Positions 5,657 to 53,795 of a DNA stretch of 64,000 bases are shown here, piece by piece (the stretch's first letter is position 1; each line of letters opens with the position of its first letter). The position numbers and the translations under genes are program-made. The notes below the pieces were generated by a model that searched no databases, was not told the DNA's origin, and saw nothing but the letters and a program-made list of their open reading frames with translations. The stretch lies in NCBI RefSeq assembly GCF_050920415.1, contig NZ_CP169309.1; one strand, 5' to 3'. The DNA comes from Escherichia coli (GTDB lineage: Bacteria; Pseudomonadota; Gammaproteobacteria; Enterobacterales; Enterobacteriaceae).

Positions 5657-7072
5657 TTATTTCGAGTTGCTATTTGAGGTGTCGAACTGCTGTGTCAGAT
5701 AGCTACTGGTGGAGTTAAGCGAGTTCATTAACACATCTAATTGGGTGAACTGGGCTTTATAGCGCGTCATTAAGGTATCGATACGCTCACTGGCTGCGTT
5801 GTACTGGTCGGTCAAATTATTCAGCGTTTTGCTGACGCCATCTTTTGCGGCCTGGATTATCCCGGTGGAAGAGAGCCAACTGGTTAGGTTGCTACTAATG
5901 CCGGTGGTTACCCCTGTACTTTTACCGTCACCTATAAACATTTCACCGATGCCAGTGGCATCTTTTTTTAGCGCCGTTTGCAGTTTGTCGGTCGCGATTT
6001 CCAGCTTGCCGGTACTGGCATCGCTGGTAATGCCAATCTGTGCCAGCGTTTTATAGTTTGAACTGCTGTGAGTATTGGCGAGCAAGGTTTTAAGCTGAGT
6101 CTGGATGGTACGCAGTGTGGAGTCACCGAGTAATGCGCCATTGCTGGAGTCCTGACTCTCTGCTCCGGCATCGACAGCGGTGTATTTGGTTAAGCTGCTG
6201 AACGTATCCTGCAATGAGTTATAGGCATCCACCCACGCTTTAACCGCATTTTCAGCTTTGGATGTGTCTTTACTGATGGTCAGTGTCTGATTACCGGTGG
6301 TGACGTCATTCAGGTTGAGGGTGATATCTTCCAGCGCGTCGCTGATAGTGTTACTACTGTTTTCAATCTCAACGTTATTGACTGTCAGTTTGGCGTTTTG
6401 CGCAGTGACGCTTTCAATCATGCCATTGCTGCTATCACCCGACGTTCCGTTGTAACCCATAAAACTTTCCAGGGCGCTGTCGCCGCTGACGCTAAGATTC
6501 ATAGCGTTATCGCTGCCCGTATCGTTAGCGGTGATGGACAGACGATATTCGCCGTTTCCCACATTGATGATACTGGCGCTGACACCAGCTTTGGCGTTGT
6601 TAATGGCATCGCGAATGCCGGAAAGTGACGAGTTACCCGCGCTGATATCAATCGTGACCGGATCTTTACCGCCGCCTTGTTGGATGGTCAGTACGCTATC
6701 GCTGGTGGCGATGGCGGCTTTACTGTCTTTTTGACTATTTTTTGTTGTCAGCGTCTGTGCCTGCGCCAGTTGGCTAACGCTAATGGTGTATTTCCCGGCA
6801 ATCGCGCTGCCCGTGGTGGTGGCGCTGAAAGCCGATGAACTGCTGGTGGTTGAGGTGGCGGTAAATAAATCGGCTTTATTCAGTGCTGTGTTGGCTGTCT
6901 GGAAACTCTCTAGTGCACTTTTCAGCGTCCCGTAGGCGCTCAGTTTCGCGGTGTAAGAGCTTTGCTGTTTTGATATCGGCGTCAGGGTAGATTTTTCTGC
7001 CGCCTCCAGACTGTCAAGGATGCTGCTTAAGTCCAGCCCCGACCCAACCCCAAGCGTTGAAATACTAGCCAT
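5657..7072 (-). CDS. fliD: Flagellar filament cap protein FliD
   Basis: 471 aa ORF with conserved FliD termini. Confidence 0.9.
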   Translation of the reverse strand: MASISTLGVGSGLDLSSILDSLEAAEKSTLTPISKQQSSYTAKLSAYGTLKSALESFQTANTALNKADLFTATSTTSSSSAFSATTTGSAIAGKYTISVSQLAQAQTLTTKNSQKDSKAAIATSDSVLTIQQGGGKDPVTIDISAGNSSLSGIRDAINNAKAGVSASIINVGNGEYRLSITANDTGSDNAMNLSVSGDSALESFMGYNGTSGDSSNGMIESVTAQNAKLTVNNVEIENSSNTISDALEDITLNLNDVTTGNQTLTISKDTSKAENAVKAWVDAYNSLQDTFSSLTKYTAVDAGAESQDSSNGALLGDSTLRTIQTQLKTLLANTHSSSNYKTLAQIGITSDASTGKLEIATDKLQTALKKDATGIGEMFIGDGKSTGVTTGISSNLTSWLSSTGIIQAAKDGVSKTLNNLTDQYNAASERIDTLMTRYKAQFTQLDVLMNSLNSTSSYLTQQFDTSNSNSK

Positions 7073-18698: not shown

Positions 18699-18785
18699 GC
18701 CCGGATGGTGGAATCGGTAGACACAAGGGATTTAAAATCCCTCGGCGTTCGCGCTGTGCGGGTTCAAGTCCCGCTCCGGGTACCA
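18699..18785 (+). tRNA. leuZ: tRNA-Leu (TAA)
   Basis: 87 nt GCCCGGATGGTGGAATCGG...GGGTACCA, anticodon TAA; 3' two thirds lie in the prophage att repeat. Confidence 0.95.
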
Positions 18786-18855
18786 TGGGAAAGATAAGAA
18801 TAAAATCAAAGCAATAAGCAGTGTCGTGAAACCACCTTCGGGTGGTTTTTTTGTA
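18731..18855. repeat. attL: 125-bp direct repeat (3' 55 nt of tRNA-Leu plus the tRNA-operon terminator)
   Basis: Identical to 53671..53795. Confidence 0.9.
18829..18853 (+). terminator. glyW-cysT-leuZ operon terminator
   Basis: Hairpin ACCACC-TTCG-GGTGGT followed by TTTTTTT; duplicated at 53769..53793 inside attR. Confidence 0.7.
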
Positions 18856-39405: not shown

Positions 39406-41157
39406 ATGATTCAGGACGCTTTTGTGCGCCAGCGTGCGCGGCAACTTTACTGGCAGGGTTATCCGCCCGCAGAAATATCACGTCTGATGGGAATAAACCC
39501 GAACACGATTTATGCGTGGAAAAAACGCGACCAGTGGGATGAAACGCCACCCGTGCAGCGTGTCACGCAGTCCATCGATGCGCGCCTCATCCAGCTCACT
39601 GAAAAACAGAATAAAACAGGTGGTGACTTCAAGGAAATAGACCTGCTGACCCGGCAGCTTAAAAAACTGCATGATGGCCAGCCGGATGCGACGGCCACAG
39701 GAAAGAAAGGCCGGGCGAAAAAGCTTAAAAATCATTTCACGCCGGAACAGATTGCCGCACTGCGGGAAAAAATCATCAGCAGGCTGGAGTGGCATCAGCG
39801 GGGCTGGTTTGACTCCCTGACCCTTTGCAGGGAAGCAGGGATACGTAACAGGATGATCCTGAAATCCCGACAGATTGGGGCGACCTGGTATTTTGCACAG
39901 GAAGCGCTGCTGATGGCGCTGCGTGACGATGTGGCGCAACCTTACCAGCGTAACCAGATTTTTTTGTCTGCGTCGCGTCGTCAGGCGTTCCAGTTTAAAA
40001 GCATTATTCAGAAGGCCGCGGCTGAAGTTGATGTGGAGTTGAAAGGGGGCGATAAAATCATCCTCTCCAACGGCGCAGAGCTGCATTTTCTCGGCACTTC
40101 TGCTGCGTCGGCACAGTCCTATACGGGCAATTTTTATTTTGATGAATTTTTCTGGGTCAGTCGCTTTGCTGAACTGCGCAAGGTGGCTGGCGCTATGGCA
40201 ACCCTCAGCGGACTGCGGCGCACCTACTTCTCCACGCCATCCACCGAAACGCACGAGGCATACGCCTACTGGAACGGCGACCGCTGGAACGAGAAAAAGG
40301 CCACGCATAAACGCCAGCGTTTTTCTGTGGACTGGAAAACGCTGCATAACGGGCTTATCTGCCCTGACCGGACGTGGCGGCAAATTGTCACGCTGGAAGA
40401 TGTGGTTAATCACGGCTGGAAACACACCGATATCGACGAAATTCGTGATGAAAACACCGAAGACGAGTTCCTCAATCTCTATATGTGTGAGTTTGTCCGC
40501 GAAGGGGAATCGGCATTTAACCTGAATATCCTGATTGGCTGCGGTGTTGACGGATACGACGACTGGAAAGACTGGAAACCTTTTGCTCCCCGCCCGATGG
40601 GGAATCGTCCGGTATGGATTGGGTATGACGCAAACGGCAGCAGTGGCAACGGCGACAGCGGCGCTGTGTCCGTGGTGGTTCCTCCGTCTGTTCCTGGTGG
40701 CCGTTTTCGAACGGTGGAGACGCGACGCGCTCAGGGGCTGGAGTTTGAAGAACAGGCCAGAGTCATTGAAGAGTTCACGTGTCGCTACAACGTGGAACAC
40801 ATCGGCATTGATGTGACGGGCGGGAACGGGGAGGCTGTTTATCAGATAGTGAAACGGTTTTTCCCTGCCGCTATTCCGTACACCTTCACGCTGTCATCAA
40901 AACGGTCGCTGGTACTGAAAATGCTGCAAATAATGCGTGCCGGGCGGTGGGAATACGATCGCGCCGAACGCGAGCTGGTCGCGGCCTTTAACGCCGTGCG
41001 TAAGGTGAAAACACCGGGCGGCTTTATCACTTACGAAACGGACCGCGCGAGGGGGATCAGCCACGGCGACCTTGCGTGGGCAACCATGCTTGCTGTCATT
41101 AACGAACCAATTGGCGGCGAAGGAGAAAACGAGCGTTTCACGGTTATGGAGTTCTGA
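39406..41157 (+). CDS. Terminase ATPase (large) subunit gpP-like
   Basis: 583 aa, divergent from gpO as in P2. Confidence 0.9.
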   Translation: MIQDAFVRQRARQLYWQGYPPAEISRLMGINPNTIYAWKKRDQWDETPPVQRVTQSIDARLIQLTEKQNKTGGDFKEIDLLTRQLKKLHDGQPDATATGKKGRAKKLKNHFTPEQIAALREKIISRLEWHQRGWFDSLTLCREAGIRNRMILKSRQIGATWYFAQEALLMALRDDVAQPYQRNQIFLSASRRQAFQFKSIIQKAAAEVDVELKGGDKIILSNGAELHFLGTSAASAQSYTGNFYFDEFFWVSRFAELRKVAGAMATLSGLRRTYFSTPSTETHEAYAYWNGDRWNEKKATHKRQRFSVDWKTLHNGLICPDRTWRQIVTLEDVVNHGWKHTDIDEIRDENTEDEFLNLYMCEFVREGESAFNLNILIGCGVDGYDDWKDWKPFAPRPMGNRPVWIGYDANGSSGNGDSGAVSVVVPPSVPGGRFRTVETRRAQGLEFEEQARVIEEFTCRYNVEHIGIDVTGGNGEAVYQIVKRFFPAAIPYTFTLSSKRSLVLKMLQIMRAGRWEYDRAERELVAAFNAVRKVKTPGGFITYETDRARGISHGDLAWATMLAVINEPIGGEGENERFTVMEF

Positions 41158-42203
41158 TGAGCAGAAAAAATAAAAAAGTGCGCATGAGTTCACGCATTGA
41201 TCTCGCTGATGCGCTCAGGAAAGAATCATCGCTCAGTGCATTCACATTTGATGGTCCTTATCGCCTGACCGGGCATGACCTGCTGGACAATATGTACTGT
41301 GCTGATAACGGGCGGTGGTATGAAACCCCGGTGGACTGGTACGGTCTGGCAAGAGCCGCCCGGCAAACGTCCTGGCATCAGTCTGCGCTTTACTTTAAGC
41401 GCAATGTATTGCTCGGTTGCTACATCCCGCACCCGCTGCTTTCCCGGCAGGATTTCTCGGCGCTGGCGCTGGACTGGTTTGTGTTCGGTAACGCATTCCT
41501 TGAGCTTCGAAGCAATATGCTCGGCGAACCGCTTAAATTACGGCACGCCCTGGCGAAATACATGCGACGCGGAAGCGATCTTGAATCATGGTGGTATGTG
41601 CAGGATGGCAAGGATGCGTTTCAGTTTCGCCCAGGCAAAGTGTGCCACCTGATGAATCCGGACATTAACCAGGAAATCTACGGCATGCCGGAATATCTCG
41701 GCGCATTACTCTCGGCCAGCCTGTCTCATTCGGCGGACATGTTCAGAAAACTGTATTACGACAACGGATCCCACGCCGGGTGCATCATCTACATCGGTGC
41801 AGCGCAGGTAAACCGCGAAAGCATGGACTCCCTGAAAGAAACGCTACAGGGTGCGCGTGGTGGTGGTGCGTTTAAAAACGTGCTCATTCATGCGCCCAAC
41901 GGGGGCAAAGAGGGGGTGCAAATTTTGCCGTTCCAGCAGATCACCGCAAAGGATGAGTTCATGAATGTTAAGGCGGCATCCCGTGATGATGTGCTGGCTG
42001 CGCACCGCGTTCCGCCGCAACTGATGGGGGCGATGCCGGGTGAAAAAAGTGCGTTTGGTGATGTGGAGAAGGCCGCGCGGGTTTACGCAATTAACGAGCT
42101 GATGCCCGTCATGGAGGCCATGAAGCATATCAATGACTGGCTTGGCGAAGAGGTGCTCCGCTTTAACCCTTACGCACTGCTGGACACCCAGCCCACATCC
42201 TGA
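41157..42203 (+). CDS. Portal protein gpQ-like
   Basis: 348 aa directly after the terminase gene. Confidence 0.9.
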   Translation: MSRKNKKVRMSSRIDLADALRKESSLSAFTFDGPYRLTGHDLLDNMYCADNGRWYETPVDWYGLARAARQTSWHQSALYFKRNVLLGCYIPHPLLSRQDFSALALDWFVFGNAFLELRSNMLGEPLKLRHALAKYMRRGSDLESWWYVQDGKDAFQFRPGKVCHLMNPDINQEIYGMPEYLGALLSASLSHSADMFRKLYYDNGSHAGCIIYIGAAQVNRESMDSLKETLQGARGGGAFKNVLIHAPNGGKEGVQILPFQQITAKDEFMNVKAASRDDVLAAHRVPPQLMGAMPGEKSAFGDVEKAARVYAINELMPVMEAMKHINDWLGEEVLRFNPYALLDTQPTS

Positions 42204-42656
42204 CGCGCTTCGCTTGTCTGCTGCTTCGCCGGGGCATAAAAAATTTATGCCCCGACTCTCCAGCTCCTGTATCAGTCAGATAATTTCACGACGCCTTCCA
42301 GTTTATCGCCACTATCGACAGTCAGACTCTTACGCAATCCCACTGCGCTGACTGCATGTTCTCGCCGCCTCAGTGCGATTTTGACGGCCTTATCTGCCAC
42401 CCCGTCAAATCAAAAGCCCTCACGTCTTTTTCACGCTCAGCGTGAGAAATACAGCCATTCTGTTGTGTCGCTGCGACATCGTTCAGGGGATGCTATTTAC
42501 CCCCTGAAACGCGGGCTGTTCCCCCGTCACCTGCGCGTAGAAAAAGCGCGTTTTTTTGTGCACGCACGGATCCTTGACGGATCCAGCCGCCACGCGGGCC
42601 GGAAGGGCAAAAAGTCGTTCAAAAAAATTGTGCAAATTTGTGCACTATTGTGCATT

Positions 42657-42686
42657 GAAATAAACGCCCTGGAAGAGGGCGTTTTG
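42657..42686 (-). terminator. Terminator at the end of the cargo operon
   Basis: Hairpin AACGCCCTCTTCCAGGGCGTT followed by a T-rich tail on the minus strand. Confidence 0.5.
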
Positions 42687-42694
42687 GCTCATTT

Positions 42695-42955
42695 CTATAG
42701 CTTTGATGCAGGCTGGGCTAGATGTAAGGGTTGGACATACCAGCCTTTTGATAACCAACTCTCTGCAACATCTTTACTCCTTGTTATTGCTGGTATTCCG
42801 ATGCCGTTATTTACATGCATCCATGCTACTGGCTCTGCTTCCAGCGATGCCAGTGCAATTTCATAAGCACGGCGTTCAATATTGTCTCGAACGTCCAGGC
42901 TGCCGATGCGCTCTTTGATTTCTTTAATCAGTTCTTTGTCGGTGAACGTTGTCAT
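42695..42955 (-). CDS. Hypothetical small protein (cargo operon gene 8)
   Basis: 86 aa ORF, last gene of the minus-strand operon; no recognised family. Confidence 0.45.
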   Translation of the reverse strand: MTTFTDKELIKEIKERIGSLDVRDNIERRAYEIALASLEAEPVAWMHVNNGIGIPAITRSKDVAESWLSKGWYVQPLHLAQPASKL

Positions 42956-42965
42956 GTGTTAGTCC

Positions 42966-43229
42966 TTATCCTGCTGTGCTTTCAACTGATGAGGGGAACA
43001 AAATCTTTTCATCAAATCCGGCATTCATATCATGGACAGCAACACACCAATCCATCGACGAACGATTATCAAGAGCCTCCATGATTTCATCCATGCGGCG
43101 TAGGTCATACAGGTAAATGTTTTTATCGCCAATGGTGTAAAAACCAATTTTTTTCGGTGATGGACAGCGATCAAGAACGTCCTGTAATTCGTTCAACCAT
43201 GCCTGTTCTTTTTTTGTCAACGTTGCCAT
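42966..43229 (-). CDS. Hypothetical small protein (cargo operon gene 7)
   Basis: About 87 aa from MATLTKKEQ; no recognised family. Confidence 0.45.
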   Translation of the reverse strand: MATLTKKEQAWLNELQDVLDRCPSPKKIGFYTIGDKNIYLYDLRRMDEIMEALDNRSSMDWCVAVHDMNAGFDEKILFPSSVESTAG

Positions 43230-43230
43230 A

Positions 43231-43449
43231 TCAGTTTTCCTTATACGGATTAATTTTATTGTGCAATGTGTTGAACGACGCCCATACCACGTCGTTATAC
43301 AATTCAATAACTGGCTCAATTATTTTCCCGATTGCCCAGATAAAAATTAGCGGGGATATCGGTATCATCAACACGATAAACAGAATGAGAAACAGAAATT
43401 CTATTGCTCTACTCTTTCGCGGATAGTTTTTCCTGAATAGTGTAGGCAC
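43231..43449 (-). CDS. Small single-pass membrane protein (cargo operon gene 6)
   Basis: 72 aa with one strongly hydrophobic helix (FLFLILFIVLMIPISPLIFIWAIG). Confidence 0.45.
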   Translation of the reverse strand: MPTLFRKNYPRKSRAIEFLFLILFIVLMIPISPLIFIWAIGKIIEPVIELYNDVVWASFNTLHNKINPYKEN

Positions 43450-43450
43450 C

Positions 43451-43645
43451 TCACTCTCCTTTAATGCGAAAGTGGTTTTTCCAGCGGTTTTGCGCCGCGC
43501 TGGGCTTTTTGCAAAAACCGCAATCCATCATCCCGTAATATTTCATCAACCCCATTCGTCGGTTGCTGAGTCTCACCCACTGCCATACGCCTGGATCGTT
43601 TCTGCGAACTAACAGAATCTTTGCTTTACGGTTGTTGGTTGCCAT
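43451..43645 (-). CDS. Hypothetical small basic protein (cargo operon gene 5)
   Basis: About 64 aa from MATNNRK; Cys/His-containing; start uncertain. Confidence 0.35.
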   Translation of the reverse strand: MATNNRKAKILLVRRNDPGVWQWVRLSNRRMGLMKYYGMMDCGFCKKPSAAQNRWKNHFRIKGE

Positions 43646-43961
43646 ATCCCCCTCCCTTGATACCAATATTTACAACATGGCAAGCCTCTTTGAGCACCCA
43701 GTCAACAGCGTCTTTCCATGCTCCGGTTTCGGCTGGCGGATTCTCACGCTTTACCAGTTCATAGAAACGTACTGCTCTAACCAGTCCATCTGACGGTTTT
43801 GCCTGTAGTGCAGCCTGAGCTATGCGGTATGCCTGGAGTATACGGGCGTCGTTGATATCCATTCCGAACGGAATTTCTGATGATTGTGATTCTGCATCTT
43901 CAAGCCTGGCAATTTCTTTACGTAAGAAGTATTTCAACTCTTGTTTTTGTTTTCTGTTCAT
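43626..43961 (-). CDS. Hypothetical protein (cargo operon gene 4)
   Basis: 111 aa ORF, no recognised family. Confidence 0.45.
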
Positions 43962-44290
43962 GCGTTTTTTCCCTTTTTGTCTGTCACTTCTCTCCTGATA
44001 ATTTCATTGCACAAATCCACGCACTCATTGCAGATGTAAACAGACGGTCCAGCAATCACCTTTGTGACTTCGTACTGGGATTTATTGCAGAAGCTGCAAT
44101 AAATCGTCTCCTCACCTGAAGTCCATGTTTTGCTGGTTTCGCCAGACATCAGTTGTTTGAGGTCTTTTTCACGACGAAGAACTATCTGGCCACATTCAGC
44201 TATTTTTTGGATGTTGACATTTTCTTCTTTCGCCAGCGCTTCCATCCGCTCAATCAGTCGCTGCGCTTTTTCTCTGTCAATGTGTTGCAT
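43958..44290 (-). CDS. Small protein with C-terminal ClpX-type C4 zinc-finger domain
   Basis: C-terminus [38 protein letters not shown] closely matches the recalled N-terminal zinc-binding domain of ClpX. Confidence 0.7.
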
Positions 44291-44353
44291 TGTGTCCCCC
44301 TTGTTTATGCTCCCGGGTTAAAGTCATCAGGGCGGATGCGCCCTGATGTTGTG

Positions 44354-44665
44354 TTATTCGGGAAATAACGCCCGGATATTTCCGGCCATCTGACTGGTTA
44401 TCTGTGCGGCTGATACTGGCTGTGACGCGGGGCGTTCTGTCCTGGGTTGTGTCACTGATAACGCCTCATCATCAGCCCATGCAGCCAGTCGGTAAGCCTC
44501 TGCCGGATTCATTTTCAGTAGTGCCAGCCCGGCCAGAAAAGCCACGCGTTGACCACTTTTGCGGGCTTCTGGTGTAAGGCTGTCCAGCCAGGCGCATGCT
44601 TCGCCTTCGTTCTTGACGGCGGCGGGCTTCAGATAGAAACTTATCCGTCTGGTTGGTGTCGTCAT
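44354..44665 (-). CDS. ParR-like DNA-binding adaptor
   Basis: About 103 aa from MTTPTRRISFYLKP...LDSLTPEARK...AFLAGLAL...ALFPE; resembles recalled plasmid R1 ParR. Confidence 0.65.
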   Translation of the reverse strand: MTTPTRRISFYLKPAAVKNEGEACAWLDSLTPEARKSGQRVAFLAGLALLKMNPAEAYRLAAWADDEALSVTQPRTERPASQPVSAAQITSQMAGNIRALFPE

Positions 44666-44669
44666 TGGC

Positions 44670-45629
44670 TTACTCCTTGTCCATTGCGTACAGCCCATTA
44701 ACCAGAGCAAACTGTGGCACCCCGTCCGCGATGAAAGTCGCATTAACTCCGCAGGCTTCGCGGATAGCGGGTGCCACAATCTCCGCCCCGCCACCGACAA
44801 CCATCACCCGCCCGTAACCCGAAAAACCCGCCAGCGCGCGGATCACGCGTTGTTTCAGTGTTTCTTCCTTTTCACGAATAACCGCCATCAGGCTGGCGTA
44901 ATGCGCGTCATTGTGGATGTGCTGGCGCAGCCAGGCTTCATCATGGCGATGTTCAATAATGGTATTGGCGATGTGGTGACTGGTGCGCATACCGTTAGTG
45001 GCCATCACCGACAGCACGGCATCGGCCATCAGTGAAACACCTACGTGTGGATCGCAAAACACCTGGCTGATACCTGCCAGTTGTCCCTGAACCTTTGCCA
45101 CATCCAGCGTGGTTCCGCCCAAATCCACAATCAGCAGGGATTCAAACGGACTCATGTCAGCCAGTGCCTTAAAGCCTGCCGGAATGGATTCAGGCATAAC
45201 CCGCACGTTACGGATAGTGAATGCCTCACCGTTCTGGTACTCCACCGGGCGCATAACGTTCGCTTTTTTGCGGTTGATGTTGGCCATGTCCGGCTGTGCG
45301 TTTGTGTCGAAATACTCGCTCAGTGGCAGGGTGACAACCACATCCACCTCCTGTGGCGTGATGCCTGATTTGACCAGCGCGTGATGAATGGCAATGACAT
45401 TCACATCGCTGTATTGGTATTGCGTGTCGGTCGTCTGGACAAAGCGATCGCTGACCGGATCAAAACCATAGCGCACGCCATCAAGCATGTAGTTCGCGGG
45501 CTGCGTGCCACCGAACGGCGCAGACCATTCCGACTTGAAGCTGTTCGGGCTGATGGCGTTGCGGCGTTCGCCGTTCTCAGTCCATGCCAGCTTGATGTTG
45601 GTGGAGCCGTCGTCGATACAAATTTTCAT
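44670..45629 (-). CDS. ParM/StbA-like actin-fold ATPase
   Basis: 319 aa; N-terminus MKICIDDGSTNIKLAW...ISPNSFK and ...YSDVNVIAIHHAL... closely resemble recalled plasmid R1 ParM. Confidence 0.85.
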   Translation of the reverse strand: MKICIDDGSTNIKLAWTENGERRNAISPNSFKSEWSAPFGGTQPANYMLDGVRYGFDPVSDRFVQTTDTQYQYSDVNVIAIHHALVKSGITPQEVDVVVTLPLSEYFDTNAQPDMANINRKKANVMRPVEYQNGEAFTIRNVRVMPESIPAGFKALADMSPFESLLIVDLGGTTLDVAKVQGQLAGISQVFCDPHVGVSLMADAVLSVMATNGMRTSHHIANTIIEHRHDEAWLRQHIHNDAHYASLMAVIREKEETLKQRVIRALAGFSGYGRVMVVGGGAEIVAPAIREACGVNATFIADGVPQFALVNGLYAMDKE

Positions 45630-45660
45630 GTCGCTTTTCCTTATGTTGATTAATTAATCG

Positions 45661-45756
45661 TTTACGGGATTCTGAAATCCCGTTTTTGCCTGCTTTGTGC
45701 GCGCTTCATATATCACTGCGCGTTTTTTGCTCATTTACGGGATTCGTGAGTCCCGT
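45661..45756. promoter_or_regulatory. Two 20-bp palindromes upstream of parM (candidate parC-like centromere/operator)
   Basis: ACGGGATTCTGAAATCCCGT (45664..45683) and ACGGGATTCGTGAGTCCCGT (45737..45756), each preceded by TTT; the second overlaps the last codons of gene A. Confidence 0.5.
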
Positions 45757-48528
45757 TTCTGTCTGTTTTTTGTTTCCGCTGGTCAGGCCACCCCGCAGCA
45801 GGTCTGCTTTGCGGCTGGCGCGTTCAGTGGTTTCACTGATTCTCTGTGCGTGCTCTGCGTCGCGGATGGCGCGCAGCATGTCAGAAAGCACAGTAACGGG
45901 TGTTTTCATGGTGTTCTGGTCCTGCTGAAGTGTGGATGCCAGGCGTGCGGCGGCTTCAGGGTCTGATGCCCCCAGCTGTGCCAGATAGCTGGCGACCGGG
46001 TTATGGCGGATCTCCGTGCTGCTTACGCCATGATTACGGCTCAGGCGCTGCCAGAGCTGCGTGATTCGGCTGTCCGGGCGGGTATCCGGTTTGCGTACAA
46101 TTTCAAATCCCTGCGGTGCAATGATGCTGCCGTCAACGTACAGACTGCCGCCCCGTAACAGGTGCTGCATCTGTTGTTCACCGATATGCAGGCCGAGAGA
46201 TTCAGCAGACTCCCGCCATTCTTTAGCGAGTAATTCGTGGTTATCAGGCAAAGGCCGCTGCTGTTTGCGGCTCTGTGTCCAGCTCTGCATTTCATCACTG
46301 CTGTTTTTTGCCTGTTTGTCACGAAGCGAACGCATCAGCGCCCGGCGTTCGTGCCGTTTCAGTGAGCGCATCCATTCGTTCACTTCAACGCCGTCAGGGA
46401 GCTGCGGCCACGGTGCTGGCCGTTCTTCCGGCTGTTCTGTCCCGTTGTTGTCCGTTTCCTGTGCACGGGGACAGTTATTGCCACGAGTCCAAGGGGCGGC
46501 AGGGCCGCCCTGAAGGTCAAAACCATTTTCGTGGGCGTTGTCTCCCGGTTCTGGTTTACGTCTTACCAGCTTCCAGTTATCCGGATGCGTGCACACACGG
46601 GAGGATTCCCCGATGAGTGGTGACCAGATCCCGTAAATCTGTACGCTCTGTTCGCCGTAATCGTTCAGCTCATCTGCGAGGTCGTAGGCGGTGCGAATCA
46701 GGTAGTCCTTGCGTGGAACAAGCACGCCACCCTGTTTTTCAATGTAGGTGGCAAAACACCCGGCATCGGCGGCAGCGAGTACCGCATCCATTGCATCATC
46801 TTTCAGCCGTTGCGGGCCTTCCGGATTGCGTGCCATCTGGCTGGCAAGGCGGCGCAGTTCACGCCACACCTGACGGGAGGGGATGCCAAAGAACTGGAAC
46901 TGACGGACCCGGTGAAGGCGCGCCCAGCCGATGGCGCGCTCCACGCTCTCGGCCATTGATTTTCCGGTTTCGTGGTCAACGCGTGGCTTGCCCGTTTTCG
47001 GGTCGATGCCATCCACGGCGCGGCTGTCCAGGTTCTTTCCGATGTAGGTGGCGATGTAGCTGGTTGGTGTGCCTTTTGAGCCGTCGACATACTCCGCCTT
47101 AAAACGCGGAGTTATGTCATCGCCCAGCTCGTGGCGGTCCTCCTGAATGGCAATATCGCAGACGTGGGACACGATGGTTTCAATCTCGTCCGGATGTGCA
47201 AAGACCATCATATGCCAGTGCACAGTGCCGTCATGGTGAGGCTCCACCGTGCGGATGCCATACCAGCGCAGGCCGTCGCGGTTCAGTTTTTTGCGGACCG
47301 CCGCAAAAAACGTGTTAACCAGGTAATCGCTGGAGTCGCGCATGGTGGCCCCGTTCCATTTGGGGTTCGGATGACCGTTCTCCGTTGTTGCGTGGTATTT
47401 TGACGGGCAGGTGACGGTCAGAAACACCGCTCTGTCGCCACGGGCTTCGGCCAGAAGTTCCAGTCCCTTCATGGTGGCCATCATTTCTGCCTTACGGTGA
47501 ACCGGGTTACTTACTCCCGCGTAATACACCGTCTCGAGATCAATCGTGAACCCGTCTTCATTTTCCAGCATGAAACTTTTCAGGAAATCGCGTGTTTTCT
47601 CGCGCTGTGCGCGAAACTCGCTTAACGCGTCCTGGCTCAGATAGGGGGATGTTTTTCTGGAAACCAGACAGGCGGCGCGGAGTTGTTCTTCCCGCCACTC
47701 ACAACGTAACAGCCACAGTTTGCGTTTCCACCATTCCGCACAGGTCAAGCGAAGGATTGCGCCCGGCAGCAGCTCCGTGTCCGGTTCGTTCCTCCGGTCT
47801 TTGTCTGTTGTCAGTGCGTCATAATGTGGAGGCATGGCGTGCAGGTGTAACGCCATGCGGGCCAGCATCTGATAAGCCTTCAGGGTTACATCCATGGTCA
47901 GCTCGCCATCAGTCGCGCCAAAGCCATCGCAGAGTTTTTCGAAGGTGCTGCTGAACATCGCCGCCGTCATGGTGGCCAGCGTCTGTATCTGGTGTTTGTT
48001 GAGCTGCGGCAGGTAAAGCAAATCGTCCAGGCGTTCGCGTCCGGCAAGGGAGCGATAACCCGGTGTCAGCCAGCGGTGGTCGGTGCGGTCCAGACGTTCG
48101 AATATTTTGCGCAGGGTTCCGCACGCGTAGCGTTCAGCCTGCCAGCTCTTTTTGCCTTTCCGGCGATCGGCTTCCTGTTTTTTGCGCAGGAAGGAGAGGT
48201 GGCGAATAAGCGGATCGCGCAGATAGGACGGCAGCAGGCGCAGCGAGGCCATGGCTTCATCCACCGCGCCACGTGCCTGTTTTCTGGCGTCTCCTGCCAG
48301 TGTGATGGTTTTGTCCTGTTTTTCCTGTGCGTCCAGGCTTTTATTAATCAGGTTGCCCAGCGGCGTGGCGGAGAACGCCGCATCAGCCATTTCCTGGCGG
48401 CGCTCGTTCTCTGCCCGGTAGGCATCCAGCCAGGAGGAAAGCGCGGATTCAGGAGCGGGGATCCCCGTTCCTTCACGCCCCACTGCGTGGCGCGGTTGTT
48501 GCCAGTCCCTGATGTACTCTGCCGTCAT
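45706..48528 (-). CDS. Replication initiation endonuclease (P2 gpA-like, rolling-circle)
   Basis: 940 aa at the canonical position downstream of the early operon; longer than the ~760 aa I recall for P2 A. Confidence 0.8.
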   Translation of the reverse strand: MTAEYIRDWQQPRHAVGREGTGIPAPESALSSWLDAYRAENERRQEMADAAFSATPLGNLINKSLDAQEKQDKTITLAGDARKQARGAVDEAMASLRLLPSYLRDPLIRHLSFLRKKQEADRRKGKKSWQAERYACGTLRKIFERLDRTDHRWLTPGYRSLAGRERLDDLLYLPQLNKHQIQTLATMTAAMFSSTFEKLCDGFGATDGELTMDVTLKAYQMLARMALHLHAMPPHYDALTTDKDRRNEPDTELLPGAILRLTCAEWWKRKLWLLRCEWREEQLRAACLVSRKTSPYLSQDALSEFRAQREKTRDFLKSFMLENEDGFTIDLETVYYAGVSNPVHRKAEMMATMKGLELLAEARGDRAVFLTVTCPSKYHATTENGHPNPKWNGATMRDSSDYLVNTFFAAVRKKLNRDGLRWYGIRTVEPHHDGTVHWHMMVFAHPDEIETIVSHVCDIAIQEDRHELGDDITPRFKAEYVDGSKGTPTSYIATYIGKNLDSRAVDGIDPKTGKPRVDHETGKSMAESVERAIGWARLHRVRQFQFFGIPSRQVWRELRRLASQMARNPEGPQRLKDDAMDAVLAAADAGCFATYIEKQGGVLVPRKDYLIRTAYDLADELNDYGEQSVQIYGIWSPLIGESSRVCTHPDNWKLVRRKPEPGDNAHENGFDLQGGPAAPWTRGNNCPRAQETDNNGTEQPEERPAPWPQLPDGVEVNEWMRSLKRHERRALMRSLRDKQAKNSSDEMQSWTQSRKQQRPLPDNHELLAKEWRESAESLGLHIGEQQMQHLLRGGSLYVDGSIIAPQGFEIVRKPDTRPDSRITQLWQRLSRNHGVSSTEIRHNPVASYLAQLGASDPEAAARLASTLQQDQNTMKTPVTVLSDMLRAIRDAEHAQRISETTERASRKADLLRGGLTSGNKKQTETGLTNPVNEQKTRSDI

Positions 48529-51109: not shown

Positions 51110-51514
51110 ATGAAAAATGATATTGGTCAGCGGTTGCGTGAGGAAAGGGAAAGATTGGGACTTAGTCAAGTTGCCATGAGCGACATTGGTGGAGTCAAAA
51201 AGCTAACTCAGCTTAGATATGAGAAAGGAGATAGCTTTCCTGATGCTGCGTATTTGGCAGCGCTGTCTCGTTTTGGCCTTGATGTTCAGTATGTTGTGTT
51301 GGGAATTCACTCACCTGAAACTTATAACGATGATGAGCAGGAGTTGATTACTCGCTTTCGAGCAGCTTCGTTAGATGTGAAAAACGCGGTGATTGGGGCT
51401 TTAAAAGGTGCGATCAGTGAAAAGGAAACTCAGCCATCAGGACGTGAGTTAAATATTTCTGGTGGTAATAACCGTATTGCTGGTCGTGACTATAACGAAA
51501 CTAAGGGTAGGTGA
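51110..51514 (+). CDS. Immunity repressor CI (XRE-family HTH)
   Basis: 134 aa; LREERERLGLSQVAMSDIGGVKKLTQLRYEKGDSFP is a typical XRE HTH; transcribed toward int. Confidence 0.8.
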   Translation: MKNDIGQRLREERERLGLSQVAMSDIGGVKKLTQLRYEKGDSFPDAAYLAALSRFGLDVQYVVLGIHSPETYNDDEQELITRFRAASLDVKNAVIGALKGAISEKETQPSGRELNISGGNNRIAGRDYNETKGR

Positions 51515-51529: not shown

Positions 51530-52180
51530 ATGGCCGTCAACTCAAACGGTTCAAACAATCGCGTTGCTGGGCGTGATTTTCACGAAAAGAATATTCAGAT
51601 AGAGCGATATGATGGTTCTCATACCGTCAATATCGCAATCCCTTCGAATAATGATGATGACGATCGCCCTTTGCTTAAGGCTCAGCGTAAGGAGCTAAAT
51701 AGTTTGGTTGCTGCTATTGCAGAAGCTAGCAATACTGAAGCGTTTATTATTTGGCAAAAAGTACATGCTGAGATTGGTGTAGCTGGTATTGATGATATGA
51801 CAGTAAATCAATATAAAACAGCGGAGAGTTTTCTGCATGCAATGCTTGAGCGATGTAAAGATCATGATGCCTGTAAGGCTCTTGTAAGTTTATTACTACG
51901 TAACAGTGAAGACTGTGGACTTCGACAAAAACTTCTGCGGTATTGCCATATCAATTTCGGTACAGGACGTTTAAACGATCTTACTCGTTCTCAGTTACAG
52001 TCTGCATTGTCGTGGTTAGAGCAACAATCGGCATCAAGCCACACAGAGAGTTCGACCTTACCAGAAGTCCGACTTCGTGCTTCAGAATTAATCCGACTTT
52101 ATCCAAAAGAAATAATATTCTTTATCTGCGTAGGGGGTTTGGTAGGCGGTGTCATTTCTAGGGTGCTTTTTAATTTGTAA
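51530..52180 (+). CDS. Tail-anchored membrane protein of unknown function (immunity-region moron)
   Basis: 216 aa with good RBS (GGAGG) and a single C-terminal TM helix; N-terminus repeats a motif from the CI C-terminus. Confidence 0.55.
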   Translation: MAVNSNGSNNRVAGRDFHEKNIQIERYDGSHTVNIAIPSNNDDDDRPLLKAQRKELNSLVAAIAEASNTEAFIIWQKVHAEIGVAGIDDMTVNQYKTAESFLHAMLERCKDHDACKALVSLLLRNSEDCGLRQKLLRYCHINFGTGRLNDLTRSQLQSALSWLEQQSASSHTESSTLPEVRLRASELIRLYPKEIIFFICVGGLVGGVISRVLFNL

Positions 52181-52562: not shown

Positions 52563-53564
52563 ATGTCGGTTCGTAAGATTCCATCAGGTAAATGGCTTTG
52601 CGAATGTTATCCCTACGGGGCATCGGGAAAACGCATTCGTAAACAGTTTGCGACAAAAAGTGAGGCGCTCTCTTATGAGCGCCGTTTAATGAATAGTAGA
52701 GTTGGAGACGAGTTTCAAGATGGTTCTGGTCCTCGTCTTTCTGAGTTGATTGCTCGTTGGTTTGAGATGTACGGTAAAACCTTGTCCTCTGGTGCAGAGC
52801 GCAAAGTCAAACTTGAGGCGATTTGTTCCAGGCTGGGAGATCCATTTGCTTCTCAGTTTGACAAAAATATGTTTGCTACTTATCGGGAAAGAAGGCTATC
52901 AGGAGAATGGAATCCCAAGGGGAAGAAAAAACTTAGTGAAGCAACCGTTAATCGCGAGCAGTCATATCTACATGCTGTTTTTGCCGAACTGAAGCGCCTT
53001 GGGGAGTGGTCTGGTGAAAACCCCCTGACTGGTATTCGCAAGTTTCGTGAGGAAGAAAAGGAACTGGCGTTTCTGTATGTAGATGAGATTGAACGCCTTC
53101 TGATTGCGTGTGATGAGTCACGGAATAAAGATTTGGGGGTTGTTGTCCGTATTGGGCTTGCGACTGGTGCTCGGTGGAGTGAAGCAGAAGGATTAAAGCA
53201 ATCTCAAGTACTGCCCGGTCGAATCACATTTGTTAAAACTAAAGGAAAGAAGAACCGCACTGTACCGATTTCACCTCAATTGCAGGCTATGCTTCCTAAA
53301 AAACGAGGAGCGCTATTTTCACCATGTTATGAGGCTTTTGACGCTGCAATTAAGAGAGCGAAGATCGAGCTTCCTGATGGGCAATTAACTCATGTGCTAC
53401 GTCACACGTTTGCCAGTCATTTTATGATGCGGGGCGGAAATATTCTTGTGTTGCAAAAAATACTGGGGCATAGCGATATAAAAATGACTATGCGTTATGC
53501 GCATTTTGCTCCAGGTCATTTAGAGGCTGCTGTTGAATTGAACCCTTTTGACAATAGAGGGTAA
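52563..53564 (+). CDS. int: Tyrosine integrase (P2 Int-like)
   Basis: 333 aa with catalytic box HVLRHTFASHFMMRGGNILVLQKILGHSDIKMTMRYAHF; adjacent to attR. Confidence 0.9.
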   Translation: MSVRKIPSGKWLCECYPYGASGKRIRKQFATKSEALSYERRLMNSRVGDEFQDGSGPRLSELIARWFEMYGKTLSSGAERKVKLEAICSRLGDPFASQFDKNMFATYRERRLSGEWNPKGKKKLSEATVNREQSYLHAVFAELKRLGEWSGENPLTGIRKFREEEKELAFLYVDEIERLLIACDESRNKDLGVVVRIGLATGARWSEAEGLKQSQVLPGRITFVKTKGKKNRTVPISPQLQAMLPKKRGALFSPCYEAFDAAIKRAKIELPDGQLTHVLRHTFASHFMMRGGNILVLQKILGHSDIKMTMRYAHFAPGHLEAAVELNPFDNRG

Positions 53565-53670: not shown

Positions 53671-53795
53671 TTTAAAATCCCTCGGCGTTCGCGCTGTGCG
53701 GGTTCAAGTCCCGCTCCGGGTACCATGGGAAAGATAAGAATAAAATCAAAGCAATAAGCAGTGTCGTGAAACCACCTTCGGGTGGTTTTTTTGTA
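53671..53795. repeat. attR: 125-bp direct repeat (partial tRNA-Leu 3' end plus terminator)
   Basis: Identical to 18731..18855. Confidence 0.9.

Follow-up and report, generated by a model that had tools for sequence, protein, structure and literature searches.

A pair of adjacent genes, parM and parR, was studied in an integrated P2-like prophage of Escherichia coli. The window (i.e. the whole stretch of DNA that was analyzed) comprises 64,000 nucleotides of contig NZ_CP169309.1 (RefSeq assembly GCF_050920415.1). The two genes encode homologs of the motor and the adaptor of the actin-type ParMRC partition system of plasmid R1. They constitute a conserved backbone module that is fixed beside the phage replication gene A; the pair is neither cargo of the adjoining variable hotspot nor a moron (accessory gene). 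A two-part site upstream of parM is the likely centromere (parC), judging from its pattern of conservation. Our favored reading, held with moderate confidence, is that a working ParMRC partitions the extrachromosomal circular phage genome during gpA replication and would thereby prevent its loss in a transient episomal phase. The features central to the argument are as follows.

41157-42203, plus strand: portal gene Q
44325-44348: GC-rich hairpin of 10 bp, directly 3' of the parR stop codon, at the boundary between parMR and the cargo genes
44354-44665, minus strand: parR, predicted centromere-binding adaptor, 103 residues (ATG at 44665, stop codon at 44354-44356)
44670-45629, minus strand: parM, actin-fold partition ATPase, 319 residues (from Pfam, PHROGs and the alignment with R1 ParM)
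45658-45699: proximal 42-nt repeat unit, candidate half of parC, with the palindrome ACGGGATT-CTGA-AATCCCGT and the core GGG-N10-CCC; it starts 52 nt upstream of the parM ATG
45731-45772: distal 42-nt repeat unit, candidate half of parC, within the last codons of gene A and 73 bp from the proximal copy
45706-48528, minus strand: gene A, replication endonuclease, 940 residues (annotated in phage P88; Pfam Phage_GPA in syntenic relatives)

Conservation was assessed in a set of 84 loci, namely 80 from IMG/VR, phage P88, a plasmid record that represents a free circle, an O157:H7 chromosome, and the window itself. ParM was present in all 80 of the IMG/VR loci, and ParR and gene A in 77 each; the six cargo genes that lie between parR and Q in the window were found in 2–15 of these loci apiece. 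The distance from the parR stop codon to Q ranged from ca. 1.0 to 4.2 kb across the loci, including a conserved stretch of ca. 0.5 kb that adjoins Q. Because this distance varies, and because the cargo is rare while ParM and ParR are nearly universal, the variable hotspot starts only after the parR stop codon, at the GC-rich hairpin. Many E. coli genomes cease to match the window at 44325–44354. The initial annotation had located the cassette correctly between Q and A, and had taken it for cargo of the slot in which P2 carries old/tin; the survey of related prophages overturned the latter view, as parMR proved to be a lineage-conserved module and swapping begins past the parR stop codon. Thus, parMR shares a genomic interval with the gpA-gpQ hotspot (PMC9122126), but it is not swappable, being fixed beside gene A in the whole lineage. 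The operon that had been proposed was upheld insofar as parM and parR are a conserved pair; the eight genes from parM to the last cargo gene are not conserved as one unit.

The product of parM was matched by both Pfam domains of ParM (StbA_N, E = 2.5e-82, residues 1–157; the C-terminal domain PF21523, E = 2e-68, residues 159–316), and R1 ParM (PDB 1mwk) was aligned with it from end to end (E = 9e-93), with about half of the aligned residues identical. The segments IDDGSTNIKL, MPESIPAG, DLGGTTLD, and GGGAE are kept between the two proteins. A further match was obtained to phrog_691 (“partition protein”, 1.8e-90). NCBIfam yielded only sub-threshold matches for ParM (PRTRC_D, 22 bits; the PRK13917 ParM model, 19 bits, for which the cutoff is 417) and no match for ParR. 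It was uninformative for both proteins, and homology was settled using Pfam, PHROGs, and a search of solved structures. As ParM is 319 residues long in 84 of the 84 loci and the mean pairwise ratio of nonsynonymous to synonymous substitution rates (dN/dS) of its gene is 0.05, it is intact, without decay.

The parR gene starts 4 nt after the parM stop codon and has a ribosome-binding site of its own (AAGGAG). Its product was matched by Pfam Plasmid_stab_B (6.5e-24) and, over its full length, by phrog_2515 (“partition protein”). Searched as a single sequence against solved structures, ParR gave no match; a profile was required, and one built only from prophage ParRs matched the solved structure of pB171 ParR (2JD3) at E = 2.2e-11 over residues 6–86. 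Three parts were distinguished in the protein: an N-terminal ribbon-helix-helix domain (residues ca. 1–65, from homology), a hypervariable linker (66–92), and a conserved tail ending in GNIRALFPE. The dN/dS values were 0.18 for the N-terminal part, 0.92 for the linker (codons 66–92), and 0.08 for the C-terminal 11 codons. The tail motif K-N-(A/I)-x-x-L-F-P is invariant in the prophage ParRs and aligns with the tail of an R1-type plasmid ParR (KKNAMKLIN). In R1, the part of ParR that binds ParM is its C-terminal peptide (PDB 4A62). This three-part selection pattern is, at the level of sequence, that expected of a working adaptor in which a flexible tether joins a DNA-binding domain to a motor-binding peptide. 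ParR is intact in all loci whose contig does not end there. The initial annotation had thus named both proteins correctly as a close ParM homolog and a ParR-like adaptor; its reservation that the pair might be a decayed fragment can be set aside, the ATPase motifs being intact as well.

Strongly diverged alleles of ParR (103 or 104 residues) occur beside 99% identical ParMs. The ParRs of the window and of O157 have 53% of their residues in common over the whole length. When the two allele groups are compared, identity amounts to 67% over residues 1–65 and to 16% over the linker. The DNA-reading strand lies within the first 18 residues, which do not differ between the two alleles compared, and both alleles adjoin the same upstream sites. 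In many genomes (among them the listed O157:H7 strains and one ST131 (sequence type 131) strain), homology to the window DNA stops inside parR, about 18 codons from its start. The N-terminal strand TRRISFYLKP is common to the E. coli, Hafnia, and Plesiomonas proteins, and that of the Serratia and Enterobacter proteins is slightly different.

Two 20-bp palindromes that share the 12-mer TTTACGGGATTC were found upstream of parM exactly where the initial annotation had put them, one of them in the last codons of gene A; its further description of the area as a promoter region is unproven, a simple scan having detected no sigma-70 consensus there. The 12-mer occurs exactly twice in the 64-kb window, at 45661 and 45734. 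The proximal palindrome (45664–45683; 8+4+8) is perfect, and the distal one (45737–45756) is paired at 7 of 8 positions. Both sit in a 42-nt direct repeat whose copies are 79% identical and spaced by 73 bp. The last ca. 14 codons of gene A are made of the distal repeat unit, and a coding region therefore overlaps the cis site. In one IMG/VR locus (L083, near position 6001, upstream of parM), exactly one 73-bp repeat unit has been lost, which leaves one palindromic site and an altered C-terminus of gene A; the loss looks like the result of recombination between the two repeat copies.

Across genera, what is constant is the outline of the sites. In E. coli, Hafnia, and Plesiomonas, two GGG-N10-CCC sites, 72–73 bp apart, begin 125, 128, and 131 nt, respectively, upstream of the parM ATG. 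Among the three genera, the inner 10 bp vary, but the triplets on either side, the length of the spacer, and the distance of seven helical turns between the sites are retained. The strict two-part motif was present in 58 of the 84 loci, and 21 more departed from it at one of the 12 fixed bases; across 935 kb of related loci, the strict motif had no location other than the one upstream of parM. In Hafnia, where an open reading frame (ORF) has been inserted after gene A, the two-part site stays with parM, not with A. The Serratia and Enterobacter prophages have another set of repeats, with a 14-nt inverted repeat. A per-column conservation analysis of the 160 nt upstream of parM was also performed on 59 E. 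coli variants, which were too close in sequence to decide the matter. From these patterns, the two-part site is likely the parM centromere.

The palindromes might instead be intrinsic terminators or RNA hairpins and no centromere at all, a reading that bears on the site alone and to which we assign only a slim chance. The scan did flag both as terminator-like on the plus strand (8-bp stems followed by T-runs), and the predicted hairpin energies in the E. coli sites are −8.7 to −10.7 kcal/mol. On the other hand, no transcription is known to enter the region on the plus strand, and on the coding (minus) strand the hairpins are not followed by a T-run. The hairpins mostly collapse in Plesiomonas and Hafnia, where five of six site-strand folds that involve the sense strand or the distal sites have energies of −3.2 to −4.9 kcal/mol (the strongest of all eight has −7.4 kcal/mol), whereas the triplets, the 10-bp spacer, and the 72–73-bp spacing are retained. 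Nor are the arm variants within E. coli consistently compensatory on either strand. Since hairpin potential is not kept across genera while the triplets and their spacing are, terminators or RNA hairpins were rejected as the main explanation, and the conservation of the site favors a protein-binding centromere or operator.

Gene A lies directly upstream of parM on the same strand. The scan detected no minus-strand terminator between the two genes and no sigma-70 consensus promoter upstream of parM; the best −10-like string, read by eye, is ATTAAT, which lacks the key A at position 2. It follows that parMR is most likely co-transcribed with gene A from the early lytic promoter. Expression would thus be expected in infected or induced cells, and not in the lysogen under repression.

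That the host element is an integrated P2-like prophage, as first proposed, was established by its sequence and its ends. The region is 97% identical to P88 and PhiR44_2 in the matched parts (Xuanwuvirus, Peduoviridae), its gene order is that of the RefSeq record of the P2-type Escherichia phage P88, and the ParMs of the window and P88 are 100% identical. The integration site is the 3' end of a tRNA-Leu gene, and perfect direct repeats of 125 bp are located at both ends of the prophage.

18731-18855: attachment (att) repeat at one end, including the 3' end of tRNA-Leu(taa) (tRNA at 18699-18785)
53671-53795: att repeat at the other end, adjoining the integrase gene (52563-53564, plus strand)

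In the chromosomal flanks, pgsA lies beyond one end of the prophage and yecA/tyrP beyond the opposite end; the window copy of the phage is integrated in the chromosome. The att repeat covers the 3' end of the tRNA gene and ca. 70 bp past it, and 125 bp seems long for a P2-type attachment core. The homologs of gpA in Plesiomonas, Enterobacter, Hafnia, and Serratia prophages have 785–907 residues, compared to 940 in the window.

The A-parM-parR block was found in 1438 of 5426 complete E. coli genomes (ca. 26%), 1264 of which hold at least 80% of it; O157:H7 and ST131 strains are among the carriers. Its placements in these genomes were chromosomal in 1632 cases and on a plasmid in 2. Among 72,556 plasmid records, there was one stand-alone circle (NZ_CP148288.1; locus L002), and the other good matches were prophages within replicons of 0.2–1.4 Mb. 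This record, from an E. coli isolate of a cat, is a circular “plasmid” of 34,461 bp that consists of a complete P88-like genome with its integrase; it may be a maintained episome or an excised form caught by the assembly. Its attachment site differs from that of the window phage.

Beyond E. coli, the ParMs of P2-type prophages in Plesiomonas, Hafnia, Serratia, and Enterobacter are 63, 62, 58, and 54% identical to that of the window, respectively, and the gene order is preserved: gpA, zero to two small ORFs, ParM, ParR, variable cargo (e.g. HicAB or a KAP NTPase), and portal. In a neighbor-joining tree, the E. coli, Hafnia, and Plesiomonas prophage ParMs form one clade (100/100 bootstrap). Monophyly of all P2-like ParMs was not supported. 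Because the Serratia and Enterobacter prophage ParMs interleave with those of IncI-type plasmids in this tree, exchange of parM with plasmids has evidently occurred. A ParM/ParR pair (ParM 49% identical) was also noted on a Dickeya chromosome (locus L091, 8001–9373), where it lies within an integrative and conjugative element (ICE) with TraG and TraU genes.

The O157:H7 locus is a degraded prophage in which A-parM-parR is intact. In O157 Sakai, the sole P2-like prophage is Sp13, which lacks most morphogenesis genes; it excises, circularizes, and replicates spontaneously, and does so 30-fold more after treatment with mitomycin C, with its early genes induced (PMC2669165). As Sp13 is the only P2-like prophage of Sakai and one or two matches to the block were present in each of the listed O157:H7 genomes, we infer that Sp13 is the parMR-bearing element of O157.

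The prophage module was compared to systems of known function. It resembles ParMRC (StbA/StbB) of R1, to which par loci of IncI/IncF plasmids are related, in the full-length alignment of ParM, in the identical nucleotide-binding motifs, in a ParR with a Plasmid_stab_B domain and a C-terminal tail motif, and in the order candidate parC, parM, parR; the nearest ParMs in the neighbor-joining tree are those of IncI-type plasmid par systems. It differs in that its carrier is an integrating phage, not a low-copy plasmid, in that its putative centromere has two palindromic sites 73 bp apart instead of an array of 11-bp iterons, in the absence of a parM promoter detectable by the simple scan, and in the length of ParR (103 residues compared to 116–138 in plasmid copies). 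A second system is SrpMRC, a type II partition system present in every ICE of the SXT/R391 family. Its genes are switched on only together with those for excision and replication, and experiments showed that it stabilizes the transient excised ICE form, which replicates by the rolling-circle mode (PMC4489591). Both modules are conserved throughout a family of normally integrated elements. However, SrpM is distant from R1 ParM and SrpR has no recognizable domain, whereas the prophage proteins are close, recognizable homologs; the carrier of SrpMRC is a conjugative ICE, not a tailed phage, and its function is demonstrated, while prophage parMR is known from sequence. The AlpC/AlpA/alpS system of the Corynebacterium glutamicum prophage CGP3 likewise combines an actin-like filament protein and a DNA-binding adaptor from an integrated prophage. 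It is induced early, its adaptor binds upstream of its own operon, and it acts on the excised circle (PMC4446434, PMC5539076). AlpC is set apart by its description as a distinct actin-like protein of a Gram-positive host, and the role demonstrated for AlpAC is in replication efficiency and transport, not segregation.

Segregation of an episomal form, one of the roles suggested by the initial annotation, emerged as the best supported, indirectly, from the position of the genes and from the precedents of SrpMRC (PMC4489591), AlpAC (PMC4446434), and Sp13 (PMC2669165). The proposed mechanism is as follows. Dimers of ParR would bind the centromere, i.e. the two GGG-N10-CCC sites that lie seven helical turns (72–73 bp) apart and span the end of gene A and the parM leader, through the N-terminal ribbon-helix-helix domain. 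The C-terminal tail of ParR would capture the ends of ATP-ParM filaments, and filament growth between two ParR/parC complexes would push sister DNA circles apart. The substrate would be the circular extrachromosomal phage genome after infection or excision, with gpA replication running, and not the integrated prophage. Located at the 3' end of the early replication operon, parMR would be transcribed with gene A only upon derepression of the phage. The benefit would be that each daughter cell keeps a copy during the episomal phase, before integration, re-integration, or lysis, as SrpMRC achieves for the SXT/R391 ICEs. Several points weigh against this proposal. No experiments on this parMR module were found in the literature searched. 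P2-type lytic replication makes many copies, for which active partition seems unnecessary, and a single non-replicating circle cannot be segregated; a benefit during lysogenization is therefore hard to see. The two-site arrangement is unlike the 10-iteron parC of R1, for which reason the binding of ParR to the sites remains a prediction, and a plasmid locus (L004) has A/C-rich iterons. The promoter scan was crude, and a weak or activator-dependent parM promoter, and hence expression in the lysogen, may exist. Finally, the equation of Sp13 with the parMR element of O157 is itself inferred.

The same machine could be employed in the lytic cycle. ParM filaments would then move or position replicating circles (e.g. 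at the membrane or the poles) for efficient rolling-circle replication by gpA or for packaging, as AlpAC does for the CGP3 prophage, and inheritance would be irrelevant. We consider this somewhat unlikely, although parMR comes immediately after gene A in the early operon, the scan having shown no intervening terminator, and stays closely linked to gpA from one genus to the next, and although AlpA/AlpC are induced early and required for efficient replication of an integrated prophage (PMC4446434); what speaks against it is that the ParM is ca. 50% identical to plasmid-segregating ParMs and is not a specialized phage actin. A broader formulation, in which ParMRC serves this phage lineage as a machine for handling viral DNA, coupled to the rolling-circle replication by gpA, is put forward tentatively, as an idea more apt to be wrong than right. 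Such a machine might position replicating circles for efficient replication or packaging, or might let the phage persist, facultatively and heritably, in a plasmid-like carrier state after excision and before lysis or re-integration, and its unusually minimal two-site centromere would work unlike plasmid iteron arrays.

A stable plasmid lifestyle was raised as a possibility for partition-bearing P2-like phages by Rousset et al. 2022 (PMC9122126). P88-like phages would in that case be phage-plasmids whose parMRC keeps the prophage as a stable low-copy plasmid. Besides that remark, the 34.5-kb circular record NZ_CP148288.1 is compatible with this reading, as is the StbA-type partition gene of Escherichia phage D6, the product of which is 47.8% identical to the window ParM. 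In a collection of 50,697 records, D6 represents the sole other phage group with a close ParM homolog. We take D6 to be P1-like, with a prophage that is maintained as a plasmid, a lifestyle for which a partition system is no surprise; P88-like phages, in contrast, integrate. The 1632 chromosomal placements against 2 on plasmids in the complete genomes, the single stand-alone circle among the plasmid records, the presence of an integrase and att sites with the window copy integrated, and the lack of an evident plasmid-type replicon together make a stable plasmid lifestyle improbable. Rated lowest, and thought very improbable, is a repurposed function in the lysogen: the exclusion of, or incompatibility with, superinfecting relatives or ParMRC plasmids (by titration of ParR or mis-segregation), or some other defense. 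The module does adjoin a hotspot that houses old/tin and other defense systems (PMC9122126), and the diverged ParR alleles beside nearly identical ParMs could reflect diversifying specificity. Yet the divergence falls mostly in the neutrally evolving linker, with the first 18 residues identical; parMR is invariant while true hotspot cargo turns over; and no promoter for expression in the lysogen was found in the scan. A search of all eight proteins (ParM, ParR, and the six cargo products) against PADLOC-DB v2 gave no match at E ≤ 0.01, and no evidence was obtained for the anti-phage role that the initial annotation had also considered. Partition of the episomal genome thus remains the favored reading of the module.

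The presence of parMR in a P2-like prophage is real, very common in E. coli, and not new as an observation. Rousset et al. 2022 (PMC9122126) reported a putative partition system in the gpA-gpQ interval of about one in four P2-like phages of E. coli, and both genes have already been named in the P88 RefSeq record, in PHROGs, and by the NCBI annotation pipeline PGAP (“plasmid segregation protein ParM” and “plasmid partitioning/stability family protein”). No functional study of parMR in P2-like phages was found in the literature searched, and a 2026 preprint on P2/P4 hotspots does not mention partition. What is added here is that the module belongs to the backbone, how selection varies along ParR, that the synteny extends to other genera, that a candidate centromere of two sites is conserved, and that the placement data argue against a stable plasmid lifestyle. 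Judged from sequence, about one-quarter of complete E. coli genomes hold an intact, strongly constrained actin-type DNA-segregation machine in a chromosomal prophage. If a transient episome is indeed partitioned, integrating phages would, like ICEs, pass through a plasmid-like phase in which inheritance has to be active, and this would bear on the persistence and spread of defective prophages. If the role is instead in lytic replication, the module would correspond to AlpAC in a Gram-negative host. With its compactness and conservation, the candidate centromere of two sites would be a convenient minimal model of ParR/parC interaction, and phage P88 is inducible and genetically tractable (PMC5285337).

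The remaining features of the interval between parR and Q lie outside the partition module.

42204-42690: non-coding stretch between the cargo genes and Q, 93–97% identical across related loci; its distance from parR varies by 0.5–3.7 kb
42695-44290, minus strand: six small variable cargo genes (43958-44290, 43626-43961, 43451-43645, 43231-43449, 42966-43229, and 42695-42955)
43231-43449, minus strand: cargo gene for a membrane protein
43958-44290, minus strand: cargo gene for a protein of 110 residues with a ClpX-type zinc finger (match to the ClpX N-terminal zinc finger, 2e-13; phrog_6797)

The gene at 43958–44290 directly follows parR in the window and in P88, and is present in just 15 of the 80 IMG/VR loci. 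The C-terminus of its product matches the N-terminal C4 zinc finger of ClpX; the name given to its homolog in the P88 RefSeq record, “carboxylate--amine ligase”, looks like a misannotation. The other five cargo genes (42695–43961, minus strand) have ca. 94% DNA identity to the ea region of Shiga toxin (Stx)-converting and lambdoid phages (e.g. 933W and VT2-Sakai), which suggests that P2-like and lambdoid phages have recently exchanged accessory genes. The non-coding stretch at 42204–42690 probably contains the cos packaging site, judging by its position, the cos sequence itself not having been identified. Elsewhere in the prophage, an ORF of 216 residues (51530–52180, plus strand) lies between a putative repressor gene (51110–51514) and the integrase gene. 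Its product weakly and partially matches the flagellar regulator Flk (8e-16, far under the model cutoff), and it may be an accessory gene that is expressed in the lysogen.

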